This document shows positions 246-13,451 of a DNA stretch of 13,451 bases, piece by piece. Every line of letters starts with the position of its first letter. Positions within the stretch are counted from its first letter, which is position 1. The position numbers and the translations under genes were made by a program. The notes under the pieces are model-generated. The model saw only the letters and a program-made list of their open reading frames with translations, had not been told where the DNA came from and searched no databases. The DNA comes from a virus, in IMG/VR virus record IMGVR_UViG_3300045988_086948, positions 1 to 13,451 of that record, one strand, 5' to 3'.

Positions 246-1583
246 TCAAGACTTACTCTGAGGTCTACGCCAATCCGCCTGCACATCTTCTAAGTAAAAA
301 TCAACAAATATTGTCATTGATGTTATTTGAGCCTGAGTCTCATTGTTGGTATTGAACAGCATGACACTACCATCTGCTTTTAGTAAAGCTTTAGCGGAGA
401 ACTGTCCACCAACTGAACCATCACCACCAGACCTGTAAGCAATTGCGTAGTTACTGTTATTCTTAGGTCTAAAACAATAAGGTAATGTAAGAATCTTAGT
501 GTACTGCTGTGTTGCGTCTGGTGCTTTAAATACACCCGCAATTCTTATATGCACAAACCTTGTGCCAAAATCTACAAATGAACCATTCTGATTAATTTCA
601 AATACAGAAGTTACAGGAGATGAAGCACTAGCAATCTGCGCTCCCGGTACTCGTTCAAAATAATCTCCTAACGGTACAGGTGACTGAGTAACCAACACAT
701 TAAGAATATATCTAGCAAGTACCTCTGCATATGCTTCTGTGTAATGTAAATACTCTGTGTTTGTTTCAGTGTAAAAGTCACTTAACAACGTATCTGTAGA
801 CGGTGCAATCACAGGTGCACTAGAGAATAAGTCGACAAATGTCCATCCATTTTCTGTTGCATACTGTGAATAAAGTCTCCAATATGCGGTCTGTGGAATA
901 ACCCACGATGACGGCATACCCCTGTAGTTTTTGTATGTGCTAAACAAATACACATGACATTTAGGGTCTACACTCTGTACCTTAGTTCTGATTTTATCAA
1001 GTGCCGCTCTCATATCCTGTAAACTTGTCTGGTCACGAACATCATTAATACCACACCAGATAATAAGGTTGCTTAAACCTTTAACTGATTCATATTTTTC
1101 AAATTTATCAGCCTGTTCTGCAAGTTTAGCACCTGACACAGCATAGTTATACATATTAACCATAACACCTTTTGTCATAGTAGTGAAGTTTTTAAACCAA
1201 GTGATTCCATTTCTACTGGCTGTTAAACTGTCACCAAGTACAACTAAATTCTGTCCCTGCAATACATTCAGATAACTTACCGCACCATAGGTTGATTCGA
1301 TTATGTTTGTTAATGTTCCATCGTCACGATATTTAGTGAGTTCCTGCTGTGTAGCTTCTGTAACATATTCTGGAATATTGTTAATAGTTGTTGTATACTC
1401 AGTCACAAAATCATCAATTTTTTTGTTCTGTTCTTTCACGTTTTTATTGATATCATTCGTGAACTGAGTCATTTTAGTTTCCAGACTGTTAAAGCTGTCA
1501 ACTAATTCTTTCATTGTCTGGATTAACCAGTCAAGATTGAGTTGATGAAAGTTACTGAATGGAAACTTGTTCCATAATGCCAT
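246..1583 (-). CDS. Tail fibre / appendage protein with central SGNH (GDSL) esterase domain, 445 aa
   Basis: I place the start at ATG 1583 (MALWNKF...), preceded by AAAGGAGG with an 8-nt spacer, rather than at the ORF-track start 1616. The SGNH blocks can be read directly: VVLGDSLTA (block I), YAVSGAKL (II), IWCGINDV (III), EYLHYTE (V-like His). The N-terminus is a predicted coiled coil (FHQLNLDWLIQTMKELV...). The C-terminal ~130 aa look beta-rich. It is the last gene of the tail module, the same position as phi29 gp12. Confidence 0.7.
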   Translation of the reverse strand: MALWNKFPFSNFHQLNLDWLIQTMKELVDSFNSLETKMTQFTNDINKNVKEQNKKIDDFVTEYTTTINNIPEYVTEATQQELTKYRDDGTLTNIIESTYGAVSYLNVLQGQNLVVLGDSLTASRNGITWFKNFTTMTKGVMVNMYNYAVSGAKLAEQADKFEKYESVKGLSNLIIWCGINDVRDQTSLQDMRAALDKIRTKVQSVDPKCHVYLFSTYKNYRGMPSSWVIPQTAYWRLYSQYATENGWTFVDLFSSAPVIAPSTDTLLSDFYTETNTEYLHYTEAYAEVLARYILNVLVTQSPVPLGDYFERVPGAQIASASSPVTSVFEINQNGSFVDFGTRFVHIRIAGVFKAPDATQQYTKILTLPYCFRPKNNSNYAIAYRSGGDGSVGGQFSAKALLKADGSVMLFNTNNETQAQITSMTIFVDFYLEDVQADWRRPQSKS

Positions 1584-1597
1584 AGTATTTACCTCCT

Positions 1598-2263
1598 TTA
1601 ATATACACTTAAACAAAAACGATCTCTGAAATCAAATACCATTTTGTTTAACACGTTGATAGCTGACAGTTCATTGAACTTTTTAGCGGAATCAAGAAAA
1701 CTACCATAATCAGAAGTTACTCTGGTATAATTCCTATTTCTATCATCCGTCCCGTTTTCTGTGTTATCATAACTGGCACTTGTATTTGCATTAACATCGT
1801 CAGTTGTTAAAGAGTGGTCTTTCGGTTTTGAATTAGCTTCGTTAAAACCATATACAGCATTATCGGTAGTAATATTATCATTACTGGTGAATACTGTATT
1901 ATTACTAGAATTTATACTTCTAGTGTTCTTTTTACCCTCTTTGTCTGTAAATGTTTCCTGCTTGGCACTTGTCAGAATGTTTCCTGCTTCAAGTTCTATC
2001 GATTGCTGTGCGTTGTAATATGCTTTCCAGACTTCTTTCTGATTATCAACCCAACTTTTTGCAATCCTCTTAAAATAAGTCGGGTTGGGAAGTGTGACCT
2101 CAAGTTCACCACACTCGTATACCAATAAATCATTAAATCTTTCCAACATTGTAATAGCGGTATCTTGAGTTCTGAATAAACTGATAAAGGTATCGAGAAA
2201 CACATCGTCAATCAGGTCTTCATCCCATCCAAGTAAACCTATGATAGTAATATAAGCACTCAT
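1598..2263 (-). CDS. Lower-collar / tail-adaptor candidate (gp11 position), 221 aa
   Basis: RBS GAAAGGAG sits 6 nt before ATG 2263. It lies directly downstream of the connector gene, as phi29 gene 11 does. The middle third is N/S/T/D-rich low complexity. The function is assigned by synteny only. Confidence 0.35.
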   Translation of the reverse strand: MSAYITIIGLLGWDEDLIDDVFLDTFISLFRTQDTAITMLERFNDLLVYECGELEVTLPNPTYFKRIAKSWVDNQKEVWKAYYNAQQSIELEAGNILTSAKQETFTDKEGKKNTRSINSSNNTVFTSNDNITTDNAVYGFNEANSKPKDHSLTTDDVNANTSASYDNTENGTDDRNRNYTRVTSDYGSFLDSAKKFNELSAINVLNKMVFDFRDRFCLSVY

Positions 2264-2331: not shown

Positions 2332-3273
2332 CTACTGGTTTCCACATTTTCGCACTCTCCAATCTACACTTATAGGTGTTGCAAGTCTGTCTGCAAACAT
2401 TTTATTTACCTTGCTACAACATTTTTGCAATTCCTCAAGCCATAACTCACACTTACTGCGCGTTTCAAAATCATTACTTTCTGCTTCTGCTGTGATAAGA
2501 CGTTCTTTTTTGTCTGACCTCACGTTATTAATACCAATTTCATTGCAGAACATTTCTTCCCATCTTCTAAGAGTGTCTTGCAACTCAGGTGCGATGAAGT
2601 TGTCTCTCAAGTTCTGAGCGAATACTGTCCACGGCTCTGTAGTATCGCCCGCCATATTGCGCCTGCGTAAATTATTGCCATAAAATACTGCCGCTTCGCC
2701 TTTCATAATAGAATCCATTATAATTTTCATAGATTCGGCTTGCTGTTTGTTGTCCACTCCGAACATATAAGACAATTTGCTGTTTGCAATGTTAATTTCA
2801 CAGCTTTCTGCTGTAAGAGCCATATTATCTGCATAATACATTACAATATCCATTATACCGCGCCAATCTGGTTGTAGTCTGAAAATCACACAGTCTTTAT
2901 TAATTTTGCGTGTTATTTGACCTTTCAGAACAGGATTTACAATATACGCTTCTGTCGGCTGATAAAAGACGCTGTAACCATATAATCCGCATCCCTGAGG
3001 AATCACACCATAACGGTCATGGTAGAACACACAGATATAGCCCCAACAGTATAATGTGTAGAGGAAATAATTCATATCCCATTCTTCTGGCACTGTCCAC
3101 TTGAATACAGAAATTGCTTTTTGTAACAAATATCTCATAAAGTACTGCGTCAATGCTGAGTTCTGACAATGTAATGTAGATGGAGAATAAGATGAACTAT
3201 ATAAGTTCAACATATCATAGTTCATAGGAATCTGACCCATAGGATGATTCCATATTCCCGGAAAATTAACCAT
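2332..3273 (-). CDS. Portal / upper-collar connector protein (phi29 gp10-like), 313 aa
   Basis: The size matches phi29 gp10 (~309 aa). The segment WEEMFCNEIGINNVRSDKKERLITAEAESNDFETRSK aligns with remembered phi29 gp10 [37 protein letters not shown]. Confidence 0.85.
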   Translation of the reverse strand: MVNFPGIWNHPMGQIPMNYDMLNLYSSSYSPSTLHCQNSALTQYFMRYLLQKAISVFKWTVPEEWDMNYFLYTLYCWGYICVFYHDRYGVIPQGCGLYGYSVFYQPTEAYIVNPVLKGQITRKINKDCVIFRLQPDWRGIMDIVMYYADNMALTAESCEINIANSKLSYMFGVDNKQQAESMKIIMDSIMKGEAAVFYGNNLRRRNMAGDTTEPWTVFAQNLRDNFIAPELQDTLRRWEEMFCNEIGINNVRSDKKERLITAEAESNDFETRSKCELWLEELQKCCSKVNKMFADRLATPISVDWRVRKCGNQ

Positions 3274-5346: not shown

Positions 5347-5364
5347 ATGTTTCACGTGAAACAT
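5347..5364. promoter_or_regulatory. Copy 1 of the perfect palindrome ATGTTTCACGTGAAACAT
   Basis: 18-bp perfect palindrome centred on CACGTG. On the minus strand it lies between the post-capsid terminator and the RBS of the tail-knob gene, ending 13 nt before ATG 5333. Confidence 0.7.
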
Positions 5365-5365
5365 T

Positions 5366-5397
5366 ATTAAAAAAGAGCGGGCATAACACCCGCCCTC
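5366..5397 (-). terminator. Intrinsic terminator downstream of the major capsid gene
   Basis: Minus strand: GAGGGCGGG-TGTTAT-GCCCGCTC hairpin (5375..5397, GC-rich with a 2-nt bulge) followed by TTTTTT (5374..5369). It starts 17 nt after the capsid stop codon. Confidence 0.6.
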
Positions 5398-5413: not shown

Positions 5414-6610
5414 TTAGTCAAGTAAGAACACAACAGCGTTCTCAGTGAAGTCATTCCAATATCGGTCATTAAAGTGAAACCACACATTTGTATATTCACC
5501 ACGGGCGTTATACGGAGTAGTTGCGGTTCTTGCGCCGTATGTGGTGATTCCAGCAGCTTCTTCATCCATGAGAATGCCAAAAATGTTTGATGTAGCCGTG
5601 AATGTGGAATCTGTTTTAACCATTCCTGTAGTGTCCATATAATTAGCCTTAACCTTAATTCCTGTTGGTGTTTTGATTGACTGCCAAAAATTAACGCCCT
5701 CATAGTCCATCATTTTAAGATACTGTTCATTGAATACGCTAGAAAAAATGGAACTTTCCACATTGTTCATTTCCGGAGTGTACAGGTATAAACGCTGGTT
5801 CTGCAAAGGTGTGTGTCGCATGATACTATGTCCAGTGACATTAACATGATACTGCAAACTTCTTTCCGTCATAAGTCCTGATATAGTTTTAATTCGCGAA
5901 AAAGCCCACTTGTAAAATGGTACAAAATTTTCTGGCTTCTTTACCGTATCGGAGTCTAATGACAATCCAGTAACATCGTTGTATTCTGTGACCAAGTGAA
6001 TGATATTGTCAGGGTCTGCTTTTACTTTTCCACCAATCAAGTTCGCGATAGTGGCTCTTGCTGTGGTTTCGTGGCACTGTTCGATCATGTCCATAGTGTT
6101 CTGGACAAGCATGGTGTAAAATCTTTCAAATTCTTCCTCATTCTGTAACGCAATGTTGAGCTGATCGCGAAAAATAGTATAATGCTTGCTGTATACACAC
6201 TGTCCATAAAAATTTGTCTGTAAGATATCAGGCTTACTCACAATGTCCGCGTCAATACTCTGACCGTCTACCAAGTCATATGATACATTCTGCTCAAAAT
6301 TTTTGTCACCAATATTAATCTTTCTAACATGGTTTCCCCATTTCATGTTGTCAACGTATAGTCCCGCAAATTTTCGATTGTATGGACGTATCGAAAAAAT
6401 AGTTCTTGAAATAACCTGCGACATAGCGTTAAGTAATGCGTCTGGTTCTACACCCAACGCCACCGAAGCGACCGACACGAAAGTATTAGTGTAAGAATCT
6501 GATATGTCAGTTAATCCGGTAGCCTGTCCAATAATGCTTGTAAGAACATTTACCGAACTAAAGTTAGATATCGAAGGCTGTGAATTAGATATATCTGTTA
6601 CTGCTCCCAT
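5414..6610 (-). CDS. Major capsid protein (phi29 gp8-like, HK97 fold), 398 aa
   Basis: RBS GAGAGGAGA precedes ATG 6610. The C-terminal block YNARGEYTNVWFHFNDRYWNDFTENAVVFL aligns with remembered phi29 gp8 [29 protein letters not shown]. It is followed by a terminator, consistent with a highly expressed structural gene. Confidence 0.85.
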   Translation of the reverse strand: MGAVTDISNSQPSISNFSSVNVLTSIIGQATGLTDISDSYTNTFVSVASVALGVEPDALLNAMSQVISRTIFSIRPYNRKFAGLYVDNMKWGNHVRKINIGDKNFEQNVSYDLVDGQSIDADIVSKPDILQTNFYGQCVYSKHYTIFRDQLNIALQNEEEFERFYTMLVQNTMDMIEQCHETTARATIANLIGGKVKADPDNIIHLVTEYNDVTGLSLDSDTVKKPENFVPFYKWAFSRIKTISGLMTERSLQYHVNVTGHSIMRHTPLQNQRLYLYTPEMNNVESSIFSSVFNEQYLKMMDYEGVNFWQSIKTPTGIKVKANYMDTTGMVKTDSTFTATSNIFGILMDEEAAGITTYGARTATTPYNARGEYTNVWFHFNDRYWNDFTENAVVFLLD

Positions 6611-7133: not shown

Positions 7134-7436
7134 TCACTTGTTGATTTTAATTAAATAGTCAATGTGAGCAAAACCCACAACAATTTTACCGTCTGCCATT
7201 GTGTACTGACCAAGTACCCACTTGAGGGAACTGTCAGTAAAACCGAACCCGAAGAAAGTACTGCCTTTTGGCATAGAGGTAATAACGTTGCTGTCAAACG
7301 TTGGGGCATCTCTTAACATTAAGTCAAGATTATTTGTGTCAATCTTCATCTCACCGTATAGTTCGGAATGTGGATGAAGTTCAAAACCCTGTTTGATGTC
7401 TGTTGCCTGTGAGATAATTTTTGCGGAAAGGTTCAT
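7134..7436 (-). CDS. Stand-alone bacterial SH3 (SH3b)-like domain protein, 100 aa
   Basis: LDLMLRDAPTFDSNVITSMPKGSTFFGFGFTDSSLKWVLGQYTMADGKIVVGFAHIDYLIK follows the SH3b pattern (L.vR..Ps..s.vi..l.kG........W....Y..GK..GyvH..YL). Its ATG overlaps the holin stop as ATGA (7433..7436). Confidence 0.55.
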   Translation of the reverse strand: MNLSAKIISQATDIKQGFELHPHSELYGEMKIDTNNLDLMLRDAPTFDSNVITSMPKGSTFFGFGFTDSSLKWVLGQYTMADGKIVVGFAHIDYLIKINK

Positions 7437-7630
7437 GTTTCCTCATCCTTTCCCAGTTTATCCAGTAACTTCTGTAAGACAAGAGTGTTGTTGTTCAGTG
7501 CATCCTGCATGTTCTTCATTTCTTCCTTATGGGACTGTGTTTCCTGATACCATAAGTAAAAAGTAACTGCAAGACAAGCTACAGGAACACCTAAGTTACT
7601 GAAAAGCTGTGTGATTGTATTTGCGTCCAT
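7433..7630 (-). CDS. BhlA/UviB-type holin-like membrane protein, 65 aa
   Basis: It has one N-terminal TM segment (NLGVPVACLAVTFYLWY) followed by a charged coiled C-terminus (KEEMKNMQDALNNNTLVLQKLLDKLGKDEET). This is the same layout as remembered BhlA/UviB proteins. RBS GAAAGGAG precedes ATG 7630. Confidence 0.55.
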   Translation of the reverse strand: MDANTITQLFSNLGVPVACLAVTFYLWYQETQSHKEEMKNMQDALNNNTLVLQKLLDKLGKDEET

Positions 7631-7644
7631 ATGCTACTCCTTTC

Positions 7645-7664
7645 AATGTTTCACGTGAAACATT
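7645..7664. promoter_or_regulatory. Copy 2 of the palindrome, 20-bp form AATGTTTCACGTGAAACATT
   Basis: Perfect 20-bp palindrome ending 14 nt before ATG 7630 of the holin-like gene. It is downstream (minus sense) of the structured RNA element. Confidence 0.7.
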
Positions 7665-7677
7665 AATAGCGGTATAC

Positions 7678-7778
7678 TGTAATGTAGGGAAGTCCGACTC
7701 TTGAGGTGGACGACCTCATGCACCACAGTTCCGCTGTTTGTCCTTGTGCTACGGACTTATGTTCTCCCTACACGTACA
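7678..7778 (-). ncRNA. Structured three-way-junction RNA element (pRNA-like candidate or structured late-mRNA leader)
   Basis: All pairs are Watson-Crick. The closing helix is 7683-7690/7765-7772 (TGTAGGGA/TCCCTACA), continued by 7691-7696/7752-7757 (AGTCCG/CGGACT) across a 7-nt bulge, and extended outward by 7678-7681/7775-7778. Hairpin 1 is 7702-7707/7713-7718 with loop GGACG. Hairpin 2 is 7720-7723/7746-7749 plus 7725-7728/7734-7737. The strand is chosen because a TTGACA-17-TATCAT promoter would fire into it on the minus strand. The helices alone do not determine the strand. Confidence 0.45.
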
Positions 7779-7806
7779 TGATATTACATATGAAAGTAGC
7801 TGTCAA
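7778..7806 (-). promoter_or_regulatory. Sigma-A/sigma-70-type promoter (candidate late promoter)
   Basis: Minus strand: TTGACA (7806..7801), a 17-nt spacer, then TATCAT (7783..7778). It lies in the last codons of the ATPase gene. The predicted start is around 7771-7773, the first bases of the closing helix of the RNA element. Confidence 0.5.
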
Positions 7807-8848
7807 GAAGAAATTTCGATTCTATGTCTTCAAAATATATCTTGTCTTCCAAATAGTTAATGTTCCATATCCATGAATAGTACCGTTTAAAAGCTTTGAT
7901 GTTCTTTTCATTGATTCCGATAAAAGTTCGTAATGGTTCGCCCTGTTTATGTTTACATACATAGAGCATATCTGAGGACTTGTGTTCATAAATGGCTATT
8001 TCTTCGAAAAATACCAATGGAAGATATTCCGACAGGTTTTGCGTCCTCACATCCGAATAATCGGTGTCATAGAACTCATTTCCAAGTGCCATTTGAGAAA
8101 ATCCGCTGTCCTTACCTACCATCTTATAGAGAGCCGTATTCTGTTTTGCCTGAGAAATAGGACTGTTACATAAATTATATAACGCAATATCTCTATCACG
8201 TAGGAACGCCGTTTCCTGATGCTTCCGTGACATATCAGCAACTTTGCGGATAAGCCCTAAACTTGCGAATAACTCACAGCCCACGTTATCTGAGTTCGAA
8301 AAGCATAACACCTGTAGAGGTGGCAGTCCTTTCAACTCCCTATTTCGGTTCATGGTTTCATAACCGTGAAGAAAAGACGTTGCAATTCCTTTTGGAACAC
8401 GGTCACCTTTCTGCGGAATGAACTCATCCCATATCCACACAGACACATCCTCGGCAGAAAATCCACGTAAATTTGCTAATGTAGTGATAGCTGACGCATA
8501 ACCGATAGGTTGACCAACTGGTACAAGTCTGTCTTTCTCATTGAGTTCTGTGTGATAGAATCCTGCAATATCATCTACAGGGAATGGCTGTATATTCCAA
8601 TCATTATCTGCATTTAACGGTTTGAATGGTGACAACTCAATGTTTTTAATCTTGTCAAGCTGAGTTTGTTTTGTTCTAGAATACATGAAAGTCTTGTTGT
8701 GTTCCACGACATATTTCAGACCACCATATGTCTTGCCCGTACCACGCCCGCCCCAGATAAAGTTAAAGGGATAGCCTTTTTGGACTATCCCCTCAACATC
8801 CAGATAACCTTGCGTTGTGTACAGGCTCTTGGATTTATTCTTTGACAT
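7784..8848 (-). CDS. DNA packaging (encapsidation) ATPase, phi29 gp16-like, 354 aa
   Basis: I place the start at ATG 8848 (MSKNKSKS...), overlapping the SSB stop by 14 nt. The ORF-track start 9001 runs through the SSB gene. Walker A is IWGGRGTGKTYG, Walker B is VWIWDEF, followed by ETMNRNRE...LCFSNSDNV. These are colinear with remembered gp16 VIGARGIGKSYA / IVFDEF / DTVFRNRE...ICLSNAVSV. Confidence 0.9.
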   Translation of the reverse strand: MSKNKSKSLYTTQGYLDVEGIVQKGYPFNFIWGGRGTGKTYGGLKYVVEHNKTFMYSRTKQTQLDKIKNIELSPFKPLNADNDWNIQPFPVDDIAGFYHTELNEKDRLVPVGQPIGYASAITTLANLRGFSAEDVSVWIWDEFIPQKGDRVPKGIATSFLHGYETMNRNRELKGLPPLQVLCFSNSDNVGCELFASLGLIRKVADMSRKHQETAFLRDRDIALYNLCNSPISQAKQNTALYKMVGKDSGFSQMALGNEFYDTDYSDVRTQNLSEYLPLVFFEEIAIYEHKSSDMLYVCKHKQGEPLRTFIGINEKNIKAFKRYYSWIWNINYLEDKIYFEDIESKFLLDSYFHM

Positions 8849-9191
8849 ATTTTGCGGTGATGTACTCCCGGTTGTTCTTGCTATGTTCTGCAACGATTTC
8901 GATACATACATCTGCAACGTTGCAACGTTTTGCAAGTTCCATAATTCTGTCGAATGTGCGAACAAATGCCGCTGAGGTTGTTGCGAAAACATGACCCTCA
9001 TTGGTTGATACGGTAAGAACTTTTACCAGTTCACCCTCTGCGTTTTCTTCTTCATATAAACAGAATTTGTCAATGTGAACCTGTTTTCCTTTGAGGTCAG
9101 CACCACGTAATCTGTCTGGGGACTCAAACATATCATAACTAAGATTCATGTCCCACTCATTGTCTTTGATATTTGTTTTAATAATATTCAT
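8835..9191 (-). CDS. Single-stranded DNA-binding protein candidate (phi29 p5-like), 118 aa
   Basis: RBS AAAGGAGAA precedes ATG 9191. LTVSTNEGHVFATTSAAFVRTFDRIMEL...IEIVAEHSKNNREYITA is colinear with remembered phi29 p5 TTIFAADGSLYSAISKTVAEAASDLIDL...VKVVQGTSSKGNVFFSL. The size is similar (118 versus 124 aa). Confidence 0.5.
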   Translation of the reverse strand: MNIIKTNIKDNEWDMNLSYDMFESPDRLRGADLKGKQVHIDKFCLYEEENAEGELVKVLTVSTNEGHVFATTSAAFVRTFDRIMELAKRCNVADVCIEIVAEHSKNNREYITAKYVKE

Positions 9192-9217: not shown

Positions 9218-9235
9218 ATGTTTCACGTGAAACAT
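9218..9235. promoter_or_regulatory. Copy 3 of the palindrome ATGTTTCACGTGAAACAT
   Basis: 18-bp perfect palindrome ending 26 nt before ATG 9191 of the SSB-like gene (minus sense). Confidence 0.7.
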
Positions 9236-10172: not shown

Positions 10173-10190
10173 TGTTTCACGTGAAACATT
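10171..10190. promoter_or_regulatory. Copy 4 of the palindrome, 20-bp form AATGTTTCACGTGAAACATT
   Basis: Perfect 20-bp palindrome ending 22 nt before ATG 10213 of the RHH gene, which is the head of the RHH, terminal protein and polymerase block. Confidence 0.7.
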
Positions 10191-10386: not shown

Positions 10387-10870
10387 AATACAGCTTGAAG
10401 TCAAATACAGAGAGTTGAGAAAGAAACTTACAGGTCAGATAGCAAAAGTTTCTAAGAGTGCTTATGCAAAAGACGTAGAAGCGGCGAGGGCTTATATTGA
10501 ACCTAGAATTCCAGTTGTTTCAAAGATTAAGTCTAAACGTAACTTGGAAATGGCAATTCGTGAAGTAGAAGCGGCATTGAAGAACAAGACATTTGTGATA
10601 GCTGAGAGAAAACGACAGCGTAAGGCGGCAGTTGAAAGACTAAATATTACGTTTGGGACTAATCAGTTCAAGAATTGGAGACAAGCATCAAAGTTCTATG
10701 ATTTTATGAATCTTGTAAGAACACATTCCGAAGATATCATATATGACAGCGATAAAGCCGCCGATATCTACCTTGAACACACCAATGAACCATCACAAAA
10801 AATATTAGAGAGATATCGTGAGTATGAATCAGAATTCCGTAAAAGAAGTCCCAAGAGAGTGCGTTTCTGA
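10355..10870 (+). CDS. Terminal protein (replication primer) candidate, 171 aa (168 aa if ATG 10364 is used)
   Basis: It lies directly upstream of the protein-primed polymerase gene and overlaps it, as phi29 gene 3 does. The basic N-terminus EVKYRELRKKLTGQIAKVSKSAY resembles remembered phi29 TP KAEYARLVKNTKAKIARTKKKY. QFKNWRQASKF resembles QFNKWKEQASSF. The start is ambiguous: GTG 10355 or ATG 10364 (GGAAAGGA lies 11 nt upstream of the ATG). Confidence 0.55.
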   Translation: MENMAKKSASRIQLEVKYRELRKKLTGQIAKVSKSAYAKDVEAARAYIEPRIPVVSKIKSKRNLEMAIREVEAALKNKTFVIAERKRQRKAAVERLNITFGTNQFKNWRQASKFYDFMNLVRTHSEDIIYDSDKAADIYLEHTNEPSQKILERYREYESEFRKRSPKRVRF

Positions 10871-12920
10871 CATTATCAAAAGTATACCAATTGCAAGAAA
10901 CTACAGTAAAAGAAAGAAAGCAGATAAGACATTATTCCGCAACTGTATGTGTGCTTTCGATATTGAAACAACTTATCTTGATGATGTTGAACAGAGTATT
11001 ATGTACATCTGGCAGTTCGCCGTGATGGACTTGCGAACAGAAAATATTTGGTACTGTTTCGGTAGAACGTGGGATGAATTTTTAGGGTTGTTGAACAGCT
11101 TCTACCATGAGGGTATTACCGTTATGATATGGGTTCATAACTTGAGTTATGAATTTCAGTTTATGCGGCACTGGTTGCCTTTTATGAAAGACAAGATATT
11201 TGCCCTCAAGTCAAGAAAAGTTGTGAGAGCGGATATTGACGGAGTACAGTTTAGGTGCTCCTATATACAAACTAACAAGAGTTTGGACGCATTCACAAAA
11301 GACATGGGTGTGAAGCATCAAAAGCTCAGTGGGGTTGAATTTGACTACTCAAAGAAACGTTATCCATGGACTGAAATGACAGAATATGAATTAACATATG
11401 GGTGTAATGATGTTGTCGGTCTACTCGAAGCAATGAAAGTTAGAATGGATATGGAACATGACACGTTGTATTCTATACCACTTACTTCTACGGGATATGT
11501 TCGGCGGCTTGCCAAGAATGCAATGAAGTCATTCAATCATAATCAGCTACAGGCTATGATGTGTAATACCGATGTATATAGACTGTTAAGACTTGAGTTC
11601 CGTGGTGGTGATACACACGCTAATAGGTATCATGTTAATAAGATACTTGAGAACGTGGCAAGTTTTGACCGCGCAAGTAGCTATCCAGACGTTATGCTAA
11701 ATTATAAGTTTCCTATGAGTGCATTCACACCAAGGATGATAACTGATATAGAGGAACTTGAGCGGAAGTGTAAAATCAGAGATTGCTGTTTCATTGCTGT
11801 GTTTACTATCACTCATTTACAACAGAGGGATATATATTACGGAGCACCGTACCTTAGTCTTGATAAGGCTGTCGAGATAAGTGGTCAAGTAGTTGACAAT
11901 GGGCGTGTATTGAGTGCTGACCAGGCTGTATATGTGTTTAATGATATTGACTGGAAGATAGTCAAGAGTGAGTATGTCGGTGAAGTTGAGATAAGTCAAG
12001 TGTATATTGCTAAATATGGGTATTTGCCACAAGCATTTAGGAATCTGGTCATTGACTTGTTTCACAAGAAAACATCACTCAAGAACGTTGACGGTCAAGA
12101 GTTAAACTACATGAGGAGTAAAGAGTTGATTAACTCACTGTATGGGATGTGTGCTCAGAACCCTGTTAAGCCAGATGTAATATATATGGATGAACCCGAA
12201 CAGGCTTTTAAGTTAGAAGATATAAAAGATATAGGAGAAAAACTTGAGAAATATAACAAGAAAGCATTCCTGTTATATGCGTGGGGCTGTTGGGTAACTG
12301 CATGGGCTAGACTCAAATTGAAAGAGATGATAAACATTGTTGGAGATAATTTTGTATATTGTGACACTGATTCTGTCAAGTTCCTTGTTCGTAATGATTA
12401 TAATAGAATTGTGGCAAGGATAGAGGAATATAATCAGGGTCTAAAAGAACTTAGTATATCAAACAAAGGATATGCTGATGACAAAAAAGGCATTACACAT
12501 TATTTAGGTGTATATGAATATGAAGAAACATATAAACAGTTTAAAACGTTAGGAGCGAAAAAGTATGCATACACTAGACAAGACGGAACATTTAAAATTA
12601 CAATCGCAGGAGTACCCAAGAAAGCGGGGGCGAGAGAAATGGAAACAATCGAAAACTTCAATGTTGGTTTCGTATTCCGTGATTCGGGTAAGTTGGAATC
12701 AGTATACAATGACAGTGATTACGGAACTTACTATACAGATGATTCATCAGAACATCGAATTGAGATTCGTTCAAATGTTGTGTTACGAGAATCAACGTAT
12801 GAAATCGGTCTTTCGTTGGAGTACATGTATCTTTTGGCATCTGTTGGAAATTGGAATAGATTTATAACACAAGAAAGGTTGAAATGGGATGAACAGAGAA
12901 TTATTGGAAATCAGGGATGA
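10818..12920 (+). CDS. Protein-primed family-B DNA polymerase (phi29 gp2-like), 700 aa
   Basis: Exo I is FDIETT, Exo II is HNLSYEFQF, Exo III is YGCNDVVGLLEA. Motif A is DRASSYPDVM, motif B is KELINSLYGMCAQ, with TAWARL. Motif C is VYCDTDSVKF. The KxY motif is GAKKYAY. ENFNVGF is also present. All are colinear with remembered phi29 polymerase. The start is GTG 10818 or ATG 10824. Confidence 0.95.
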   Translation: MSMNQNSVKEVPRECVSDIIKSIPIARNYSKRKKADKTLFRNCMCAFDIETTYLDDVEQSIMYIWQFAVMDLRTENIWYCFGRTWDEFLGLLNSFYHEGITVMIWVHNLSYEFQFMRHWLPFMKDKIFALKSRKVVRADIDGVQFRCSYIQTNKSLDAFTKDMGVKHQKLSGVEFDYSKKRYPWTEMTEYELTYGCNDVVGLLEAMKVRMDMEHDTLYSIPLTSTGYVRRLAKNAMKSFNHNQLQAMMCNTDVYRLLRLEFRGGDTHANRYHVNKILENVASFDRASSYPDVMLNYKFPMSAFTPRMITDIEELERKCKIRDCCFIAVFTITHLQQRDIYYGAPYLSLDKAVEISGQVVDNGRVLSADQAVYVFNDIDWKIVKSEYVGEVEISQVYIAKYGYLPQAFRNLVIDLFHKKTSLKNVDGQELNYMRSKELINSLYGMCAQNPVKPDVIYMDEPEQAFKLEDIKDIGEKLEKYNKKAFLLYAWGCWVTAWARLKLKEMINIVGDNFVYCDTDSVKFLVRNDYNRIVARIEEYNQGLKELSISNKGYADDKKGITHYLGVYEYEETYKQFKTLGAKKYAYTRQDGTFKITIAGVPKKAGAREMETIENFNVGFVFRDSGKLESVYNDSDYGTYYTDDSSEHRIEIRSNVVLRESTYEIGLSLEYMYLLASVGNWNRFITQERLKWDEQRIIGNQG

Positions 12921-13211: not shown

Positions 13212-13451
13212 ACAAGGGTTATCTTCGGATAGCCCTTTCTCTTTGCCTATGAGTTAGATAAGACTAACACCAGTGCGAGCGACCGGAGGGAGCGAGCCAA
13301 AACTTCGAACATATGTTTGTGTTTGGTGTGCGTTCGCCGCGGACAGACTTGGCGGTTTGTGTTTGTCTATGACGGACAGACGGAGTTGGTTGTGTCCGTG
13401 GTGTGCGGACAAAAATGGGGGAAATGTCCGTGTACGGCGGACATGTATATA
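13212..13451. repeat. Right inverted terminal repeat (ITR-R), 240 bp
   Basis: It is the exact reverse complement of 1..240 and ends in TATATA at the last base of the window. Confidence 0.97.
13214..13247 (+). terminator. Intrinsic terminator inside ITR-R, facing the right genome end
   Basis: This is the mirror copy of 205..238: AAGGGTTATC-TTCG-GATAGCCCTT followed by TCTCTTTGCC, 9 nt after the last plus-arm stop codon. Confidence 0.6.

Follow-up and report, generated by a model that had tools for sequence, protein, structure and literature searches.

The prohead RNAs (pRNAs) of Bacillus phi29-like phages build a ring on the prohead connector by intermolecular loop pairing; they are needed for DNA packaging and are missing from mature virions. 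According to reviews published up to 2024-2025, Bacillus phi29-like phages alone possess a pRNA (PMC5066667, PMC11476376). A 2025 Infernal survey seeded with known pRNAs added 12 more, of which those named come from Bacillus phages, and reported loop covariation for Bacillus-phage pRNAs (PMC12670572). For asccphi28, a phi29-like phage outside Bacillus, 'no evidence for a pRNA' is the published statement, and hypotheses were built on it (PMC7823558). In the literature that could be searched, no pRNA was reported outside Bacillus phi29-like phages, and none for the Guelinviridae or for the gut phages analyzed here. In this work, we describe a structured RNA encoded by the virus record IMGVR_UViG_3300045988_086948 of IMG/VR, analyzed over its whole length of 13,451 nucleotides (nt) and referred to below as the window. 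The RNA lies next to the gene of the packaging ATPase, and its locus probably encodes the counterpart of the phi29 pRNA in a large group of ~12-15-kb phi29-like gut phages, that is, a divergent, ring-forming packaging RNA.

In the consensus of the Rfam pRNA family (RF00044), an A helix with a 3-nt 5' bulge is followed by a 1-nt junction, the C helix, a 9-nt 5'-side bulge containing AACC and an E hairpin that runs straight back into C; a 3-nt junction, a D hairpin with the loop UGGUU and the 3' strand of A complete the structure. An earlier note on this DNA had likened the RNA of the window to the three-way-junction layout of phi29 pRNA, and the order of its elements does agree with the RF00044 consensus: A 5' strand, C 5' strand, 5'-side bulge with the right-hand (R) loop, E hairpin, C 3' strand, D hairpin with the left-hand (L) loop and A 3' strand. 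In both RNAs, no unpaired bases are found on the 3' side between E and C, and the 5' and 3' ends are paired in an A helix that bears a bulge in its 5' strand and closes the three-way junction. Likewise, the right-hand loop in the 5'-side C/E bulge and the complementary left-hand loop in the D hairpin covary in both, and one gut-phage clade uses the same AACC/GGUU loops as phi29. The setting is also shared, namely a protein-primed phage with phi29-type motor proteins (a gp16-type ATPase and a gp10-type connector).

The differences concern size, shape and genomic site. The core measures 69-114 nt across the gut-phage family (90 nt in the window), compared with 118 nt for the Rfam core and 174 nt for the phi29 transcript, and the C helix has 4 base pairs (bp) in the window RNA vs. 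9 in phi29 pRNA. The CCA bulge of the phi29 A helix is needed for ATPase function; the A helix of the window RNA has a 7-nt bulge, GAACAUA, in the corresponding (5') strand. A near-invariant CGGAA pentaloop closes the E hairpin of the gut-phage RNA, unlike that of phi29 pRNA, and a terminator 3' of the RNA, present in phi29, is often missing. Further, the gut-phage gene stands at the head of the late operon beside the ATPase gene, whereas that of phi29 lies at the left genome end among early genes, and the hosts are anaerobic gut bacteria rather than Bacillus, as in the phi29 group (Salasmaviridae). Judged by these comparisons, the RNA appears to be pRNA-like in architecture and context, while belonging to a separate sequence family.

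Structure and promoter of the RNA in the window

In line with the earlier note, a non-coding gap of 153 nt separates the stop codon TAA of the ATPase gene (7786..7784) from the ATG (7630) of a small membrane-protein gene. The structured RNA is read on the minus strand and its core comprises 90 nt, from 7772 to 7683 (Table 1). Minimum free energy (MFE) folding of 7778..7678 yielded a closing helix with the 7-nt bulge around two hairpins (-33.6 kcal/mol). A comparison with shuffled sequences, on which the earlier note had made its proposal depend, was moderately favorable, with z = -2.65 for 7778..7678 (1 of 200 shuffles folded as well) and z = -3.95 for the whole gap (none of 200 did); taken alone, these thermodynamic z-scores are only moderate. 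Of the closing helix of 8 + 6 + 4 bp that had been described, the 8 + 6 bp with the 7-nt bulge were borne out by both fold and covariation. The outer 4 bp (UGUA/UACA), however, overlap the -10 box and the discriminator, and their 3' partner is not conserved in relatives. The MFE fold also mis-pairs part of the first arm, for which covariation favors GCAC/GUGC together with (A)ACAG-CGGAA-CUGU(G).

The proposed loop-loop match between GGAC (7708-7711) and GTCC (7740-7743) of the plus strand is complementary as claimed, but the loops had been labeled as they appear on the plus strand. In the RNA itself, the 5'-side bulge of the first arm (the C/E bulge) holds GGAC, and the second hairpin carries the complement GUCC in its loop (the D loop).

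The promoter TTGACA-17-TATCAT (7806..7778), which had been predicted to start transcription at the closing helix, matches the sigma-70 consensus at 11 of 12 positions and is the joint best such site in the whole window. Transcription is predicted to start ~6-8 nt past the -10 hexamer, at the first pairs of the A helix. This promoter is kept in all 47 diverse relatives examined below.

Covariation of the helices and of the loop-loop pairing

The RNA element was present in all 23 close relatives from IMG/VR, whose ATPases are 67-97% identical. When the 21 distinct sequences among them were aligned, 96.7% of cells were paired vs. 32-43% with slid partners, and 13 pairs had changed on both sides vs. 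0-3 in the slid controls; in the inner A helix, this was the case for three of the six pairs (GUCCG/CGGAC to GUCUU/AAGAC). Among relatives, the outer A helix showed a compensatory series (UAGGGA/UCCCUA, GAGGG/CCCUC, CAGGAG/CUCCUG) and the E stem varied from ACAG/CUGU to GAGGU/ACCUC, with a closing pair U-A, C-G or G-C, around a loop that reads CGGAA in 57 of 62 simple E hairpins.

Two covariance models were employed for wider sets: R1, built without the loop-loop pairs, and R2, built from 47 diverse matches. They were run on 71 further IMG/VR loci, selected solely by ATPase similarity (38-62% identity), and together detected the RNA in 68 of them. One of the three exceptions is a truncated contig and the other two belong to a clade with the RNA at another site. 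All matches of R1 and R2 in IMG/VR were on the ATPase strand, just 3' of the ATPase gene, and none was significant elsewhere. In the 47 diverse sequences, 96.2% of cells were paired vs. 30-44% with slid partners, 29 of 31 pairs covaried and the covariation score was 0.69 vs. at most 0.09 in the slid controls. An out-of-sample set, not used for model building, consisted of 62 phage contigs inside metagenome-assembled genomes (MAGs) from human and animal guts. The RNA was matched in 29 of these contigs, always at the same place and on the same strand relative to the ATPase gene, and the 29 sequences were 94.7% paired vs. 32-47% with slid partners, with a score of 0.89 vs. at most 0.15. The C helix covaried in these wider sets as well (100% and 99% paired). 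Compensatory changes in relatives, which the earlier note had named as a check, were therefore decisive for every helix and, as shown below, for the loop-loop pairing.

Some variation in form was also observed: the bulge of the A helix is missing from some short forms of the RNA, and in one clade, which includes MT837693, two hairpins stand in place of the E hairpin. Cp-1 and an Enterococcus phage had no intergenic gap past the ATPase gene and no match to R2 in the 3-kb pieces scanned.

At paired positions of the minus (ATPase-sense) strand, 55 cells were G.U and 11 were A.C, an excess which indicates that the structure belongs to the ATPase-sense RNA. The plus strand of the window folds nearly as well (z = -2.29), but a plus-strand reading was ruled out by this ratio, by the promoter and by all model matches. 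Similarly, a protein-coding reading was ruled out by 1-nt insertions and deletions and by compensatory changes in the stems, and the short open reading frames (ORFs) are not conserved.

Since MAFFT put the A-helix strands of distant relatives in inconsistent registers, model-based alignments were used instead. These may be biased towards the modeled pairs, and weight was therefore placed on the out-of-sample set, on the slid-partner controls and on the loop-loop columns, which lie outside both covariance models, so that the alignments were not fitted to this pairing. The loop-loop columns were 96.8% paired in the 47-sequence set. When the columns were not fixed and each bulge was compared with the D loop of its own sequence, at least 4 contiguous Watson-Crick pairs were found in 71 of 76 sequences, compared with 6% when the bulge was combined with the loop of another sequence and 17% when the own loop was shuffled. 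About 27 distinct complementary loop pairs occur among the 76 sequences, including GUAC/GUAC, GGAC/GUCC, AGUC/GACU, AACC/GGUU, AGAC/GUCU, GGUC/GACC, GCAC/GUGC, GUGC/GCAC and GAAC/GUUC. Even two close relatives, L020 and L021, differ in this respect (GGAC/GUCC vs. GAAC/GUUC), and complementary loops were recognized by eye in more distant members (AAUC/GAUU in MT836115, GUCG/CGAC in MT836155, AUCC/GGAU in AD70P3 and GCUA/UAGC in MT835998). Since covariation is blind to the difference between cis and trans, this pairing could take place within one molecule or between molecules.

Packaging RNA or leader of the late transcript

The position and the boundaries of the RNA gene vary among the phages. 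A hairpin with a U-rich tail directly follows the RNA in 17 of the 47 diverse relatives. In the L057 clade, where the E hairpin is replaced by two hairpins, the terminator hairpin 3' of the RNA itself covaries (GCGG/CCGC, GCAG/CUGC, GUGG/CCAC); it has an 11-nt loop and was missed by a simple terminator scan. In L057 (2530-2553, 2691-2728) and its 10 sister loci, a terminator hairpin also stands at the end of the ATPase gene, and the -35 box of the RNA promoter falls within the loop and stem of this hairpin. Past the terminator of the RNA, operator-like palindromes and a further promoter-like site precede the next gene of this clade. Bracketed by terminators, the L057 RNA looks like a separate small gene.

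In MT835998 (L116), the RNA was found at 1038-1132 on the plus strand (49 bits, E = 5e-14), ~1 kb from a genome end and upstream of the same small membrane-protein gene as in the window, while the ATPase gene lies ~8 kb away on the other strand. This RNA has a 12-bp A helix without a bulge, followed by UUUUUG, and in its clade (also L025, L097 and L100) the RNA is not beside the ATPase gene. Further, Clostridium phage CI461P1 (L112; 986-1110) and 14 relatives (L113, L117-L129) carry an identically laid-out RNA upstream of the ATPase gene, between it and the polymerase gene; the promoter of this RNA is TTTACA-17-TATAAT, its loops are ACCA/UGGU, and its long A helix is followed by a U-tract. It is too diverged for R2, and a few compensatory changes were seen among the 15 sequences; its bulge is separated from the base of the C arm by ~8 bp and an internal loop, and its D helix has only 3-5 bp. 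The idea that the RNA is always found beside the ATPase gene was ruled out by both cases, MT835998 and the CI461P1-type phages. As its position varies, the constants are the promoter and co-orientation with packaging and structural genes, rather than any one neighbor.

If the RNA is a pRNA counterpart, the host RNA polymerase would initiate at the consensus promoter overlapping the end of the ATPase gene, and the A helix, formed between the two ends of the first ~90 nt, would close the three-way junction with the C-E arm and the D hairpin. Four to five nt of the C-E 5'-side bulge (GGAC) would pair with the D loop (GUCC) of a neighboring copy, and the RNAs would join 'hand in hand' in a closed ring seated on the prohead's gp10-type connector. 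From there, the A helices would project outward and dock the gp16-type ATPase, which is without a portal-binding nuclease domain, and the invariant CGGAA loop of E would be a likely protein contact. In the window, the RNA would be released from, or work alongside, a read-through late mRNA. Two different complementary loops on two junction arms are the arrangement required for head-to-tail chains or closed rings, and from the geometry of the CI461P1-type RNA and the terminator-bounded genes of the L057 clade we infer that loop pairing in trans is favored.

In a wider sense, we incline, at slightly better than even odds, to the view that an RNA-scaffolded packaging motor is ancestral among the small protein-primed podophages that infect anaerobic gut bacteria and is still common in them, comprising Guelinviridae-like and unclassified clades with at least 500 IMG/VR genomes that carry this ATPase. 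The pRNAs of these phages would be of minimal size (~70-115 nt), so diverged as to be missed by profile searches and, in many genomes, cut from the 5' end of the late mRNA or acting as that end, which would couple motor assembly to late transcription.

Several results weigh against a ring-forming packaging RNA. RF00044 (gathering threshold 100 bits), with which the earlier note had suggested a search, gave no match in the window, none at E<=10 in 7400-8000 and none at E<=1 on 11 related loci, although the same model scores phi29 at 145.4 bits; in the reverse direction, R2 found no phi29 pRNA at E<=10 with filters off. The RNA is thus not a detectable member of RF00044. The junction strands measure 2/2/6 nt in the window RNA vs. 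1/3/0 in phi29, and the geometry of the three-way junction may differ from that of phi29. The predicted N-terminus of the connector (MVNFPGIWNHPMGQ...) has no basic RKR-type cluster such as that by which phi29 gp10 contacts pRNA, so that, if the RNA binds the connector, either the contact differs or the start codon was mis-called. The C helix (4 bp) and the D helix (4-5 bp) are short and of similar height, so that an intramolecular contact between loop and bulge may be sterically possible. Finally, wherever checked, the RNA heads a co-oriented gene. No terminator was found between the RNA and the next gene in the window, where the RNA must therefore start out as the 5' end of the late mRNA, and the window and 30 of the 47 relatives have no terminator and only 14-52 nt from the RNA to the next start codon.

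These last points suit a leader acting in cis at the 5' end of the late operon (structural and lysis genes). In it, bulge and loop would pair within one molecule, as a pseudoknot that holds the fold compact; the short C and D helices may allow this. Such a leader might make the polymerase resistant to terminators, protect the 5' end of the mRNA from RNase J or bind a phage protein that times late expression. That the RNA always begins at the promoter, that in MT835998 it has remained beside the small membrane-protein gene rather than the ATPase gene, and that the late operon has an internal terminator past the capsid gene (5397..5373), which bears on antitermination, all agree with this explanation; where a terminator does follow the RNA, the order promoter-RNA-terminator-genes would also fit an antitermination leader. 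The put RNA of phage HK022 makes RNA polymerase terminator-resistant and acts in cis. Like put-type leaders, the RNA described here is structured, comes from the first ~70-100 nt past a strong phage promoter, heads a long operon and in some relatives has a terminator directly 3' of it. Put, however, consists of two independent stem-loops and is not known to have a three-way junction or covarying loop-loop pairing such as those seen here; the RNA described here gave no sequence or Rfam match, and in some clades it resembles a separate transcription unit. No alternative terminator/antiterminator pairing with the 3' strand of the RNA was seen. In the L057 clade, the RNA lies between the ATPase terminator and its own covarying terminator. 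In the CI461P1-type phages, the ATPase gene lies downstream in place of the membrane-protein gene, the A helix is followed by a U-tract, and a bulge far up the C arm would be a poor fit in cis for a D helix of 3-5 bp. A leader would also leave the point-by-point pRNA layout, in phages with the pRNA-dependent type of ATPase, to coincidence. On this balance, we consider a leader rather unlikely.

We regard as more improbable still that it is a small RNA acting in trans in some other capacity, for instance by regulating host or phage mRNAs, as a decoy for a host defence or RNA-binding protein, or as a self-dimerizing RNA unrelated to packaging. Its own strong promoter and the terminators of some clades would suit such a role, the invariant CGGAA loop suggests a specific partner, and a search of all 4227 families of Rfam 15, riboswitches included, gave no gathering-level match in the window and only chance-level ones (E>1) in the RNA region. 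The two mutually complementary loops, however, are the most variable parts and track each other rather than an external target, no further conserved, unpaired segment of a length suited to antisense targeting was evident, and the layout and the genomic company point to the packaging motor. Among kissing-loop self-association RNAs in general, retroviral dimerization initiation sites, for example, share with this RNA a short covarying Watson-Crick loop-loop pairing, which can be self-complementary, as in the palindromic GUAC/GUAC of the L057 clade. At dimerization initiation sites, one palindromic hairpin loop gives rise to dimers, in contrast to the two different loops on two junction arms found here. 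A chance fold or a signal at the DNA level, without a functional RNA, would be in keeping with the unremarkable single-sequence folding energies of several relatives (z from +0.3 to -1.6). This explanation is effectively refuted by the covariation of every helix across more than 75 divergent sequences, by the excess of G.U over A.C and by model matches that are specific for position and strand.

If the RNA is a pRNA, an RNA-dependent motor is widespread in the gut virome, and why phi29 needs an RNA becomes a comparative question, with ~100 natural variants that have an invariant CGGAA loop and much shorter C and A helices. These would also be natural minimal three-way-junction, ring-forming RNAs with ~27 loop pairs for RNA nanotechnology. 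Cultured test systems are available in the Amedibacillus phages AD70P2/P3 and the Clostridium phage CI461P1. Should the RNA be a cis-acting leader instead, it would still represent a new, very well supported class of structured RNA missing from Rfam.

Genome context and other features

The window has perfect terminal inverted repeats of 240 bp, 1-240 being the exact reverse complement of 13212-13451 in register with both ends, and is therefore a complete linear genome, presumably replicated by protein priming; the corresponding repeat of phi29 is much shorter (6 bp). Coordinates of the genes and of the parts of the RNA locus are given in Table 1.

Table 1. Features of the RNA locus and of the phage genome in the window, with the evidence for each.
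Feature	Position	Strand	Evidence and remarks
-35 hexamer TTGACA	7801..7806	-	Within the last ATPase codons; TTGACA or TTGACT at the equivalent site in all 47 diverse relatives
-10 hexamer TATCAT	7778..7783	-	Directly 3' of the ATPase stop; TATACT, TACAAT, TACACT or TATAAT in relatives, same 17-nt spacing
RNA core, first to last A-helix pair	7683..7772	-	Match to covariance model R1 at 7678-7778(-), 114.9 bits; covariation
A helix, outer 5' strand UGUAGGGA	7765..7772	-	Pairs with 7683-7690 UCCCUACA; fold and covariation
Purine-rich 7-nt bulge GAACAUA in A helix 5' strand	7758..7764	-	Form (A/G)RAC-A(A/U)R recurs in many clades
A helix, inner 5' strand AGUCCG	7752..7757	-	Pairs with 7691-7696 CGGACU; 100% paired in close clade
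Junction UA, inner A helix to C helix		-	
C helix, 5' strand GCAC	7746..7749	-	Pairs with 7720-7723 GUGC; invariant in close clade
5'-side bulge AAGGACA between C and E helices	7739..7745	-	Holds 'right-hand' loop GGAC (7743..7740), complementary to D loop
E hairpin, stem ACAG/CUGU plus A.G mismatch, pentaloop CGGAA (7733..7729)	7724..7738	-	Stem covaries
Junction AU, C helix 3' strand to D hairpin		-	
D hairpin, stem GAGG/CCUC, loop UCGUCCA	7703..7717	-	Stem covaries, 100% paired; holds 'left-hand' loop GUCC (7711..7708)
Single-stranded 6-nt junction AAGAGU, D helix to A helix 3' strand	7697..7702	-	Purine-rich AAGAA-like junction common across clades
A helix, 3' strands CGGACU and UCCCUACA	7683..7696	-	Fold and covariation
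Perfect 20-bp palindrome AATGTTTCACGTGAAACATT	7645..7664		3' of the RNA, ahead of the ribosome-binding site of the downstream gene; outside the conserved RNA core
Downstream gene, 65-amino-acid protein with one hydrophobic N-terminal segment ('holin-like' in the earlier note)	7433..7630	-	Same gene 3' of the RNA in most relatives and in MT835998
gp16-type packaging ATPase, 405-amino-acid ORF as listed	7784..9001	-	PF05894 Podovirus_Gp16, 28 bits vs. cutoff 25; phrog_2150 terminase
phi29-type major capsid protein	5414-6610	-	PF25622 Phi29_MCP, above Pfam curated cutoff
gp10-type connector	2332-3273	-	PF05352 Phage_connector GP10, above Pfam curated cutoff
Protein-primed family-B polymerase	10818-12920	+	PF03175 DNA_pol_B_2, above Pfam curated cutoff

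The ATPase family is homologous to phi29 gp16. The ORF as listed has an N-terminal extension of ~50-57 amino acids which is common to no homologue and overlaps the upstream ORF 8835-9191, and the homologues align only from about residue 50. The true start probably lies near residue 50-58, which would give a protein of ~350 amino acids as in gp16.

The nearest GenBank records of the window are unannotated phage scaffolds from human feces and, by ATPase, its nearest cultured relatives are the Amedibacillus phages AD70P2/P3 (Guelinviridae). The hosts of cultured relatives are Amedibacillus and a gut Clostridium, and those of the group are anaerobic gut bacteria. A search of GTDB genomes for the exact RNA pattern, intended for host inference, found nothing. 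Complete ~12-15-kb phi29-like genomes (L130-L191) were binned into MAGs of many unrelated phyla, labeled Clostridia, Bacteroidales, Treponema, Alphaproteobacteria, Chlamydiaceae, Elusimicrobia and others, from human, yak, sheep, buffalo and rabbit guts. ATPase relatives in such MAGs lie on contigs of ~13-14 kb. The MAG labels were set aside as host evidence; the presence of the phage contigs in them is most likely binning contamination.

The palindrome at 7645..7664 is missing at this site in most close relatives and may gate read-through or mark the site of a regulator. The perfect palindrome TGTTTCACGTGAAACA occurs four times in the window (0.17 expected), at 5348-5363, 7647-7662, 9219-9234 and 10173-10188, each copy 15-40 nt upstream of a gene start and adjoining its ribosome-binding site. 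It recurs in distant clades, at times in tandem past the terminator of the RNA, and probably serves either as an operator bound by a phage regulator or, at the RNA level, as a hairpin that acts on translation.

Within the structural operon, a strong intrinsic-terminator-like hairpin of 11 pairs with a T-run on the minus strand (5397..5373) directly follows the major capsid gene and may set an excess of capsid protein. The last gene of this operon (246-1616, minus strand) encodes a GDSL lipase/acylhydrolase domain (PF13472, 48 bits), which is unusual for a phi29-like tail or lysis protein.

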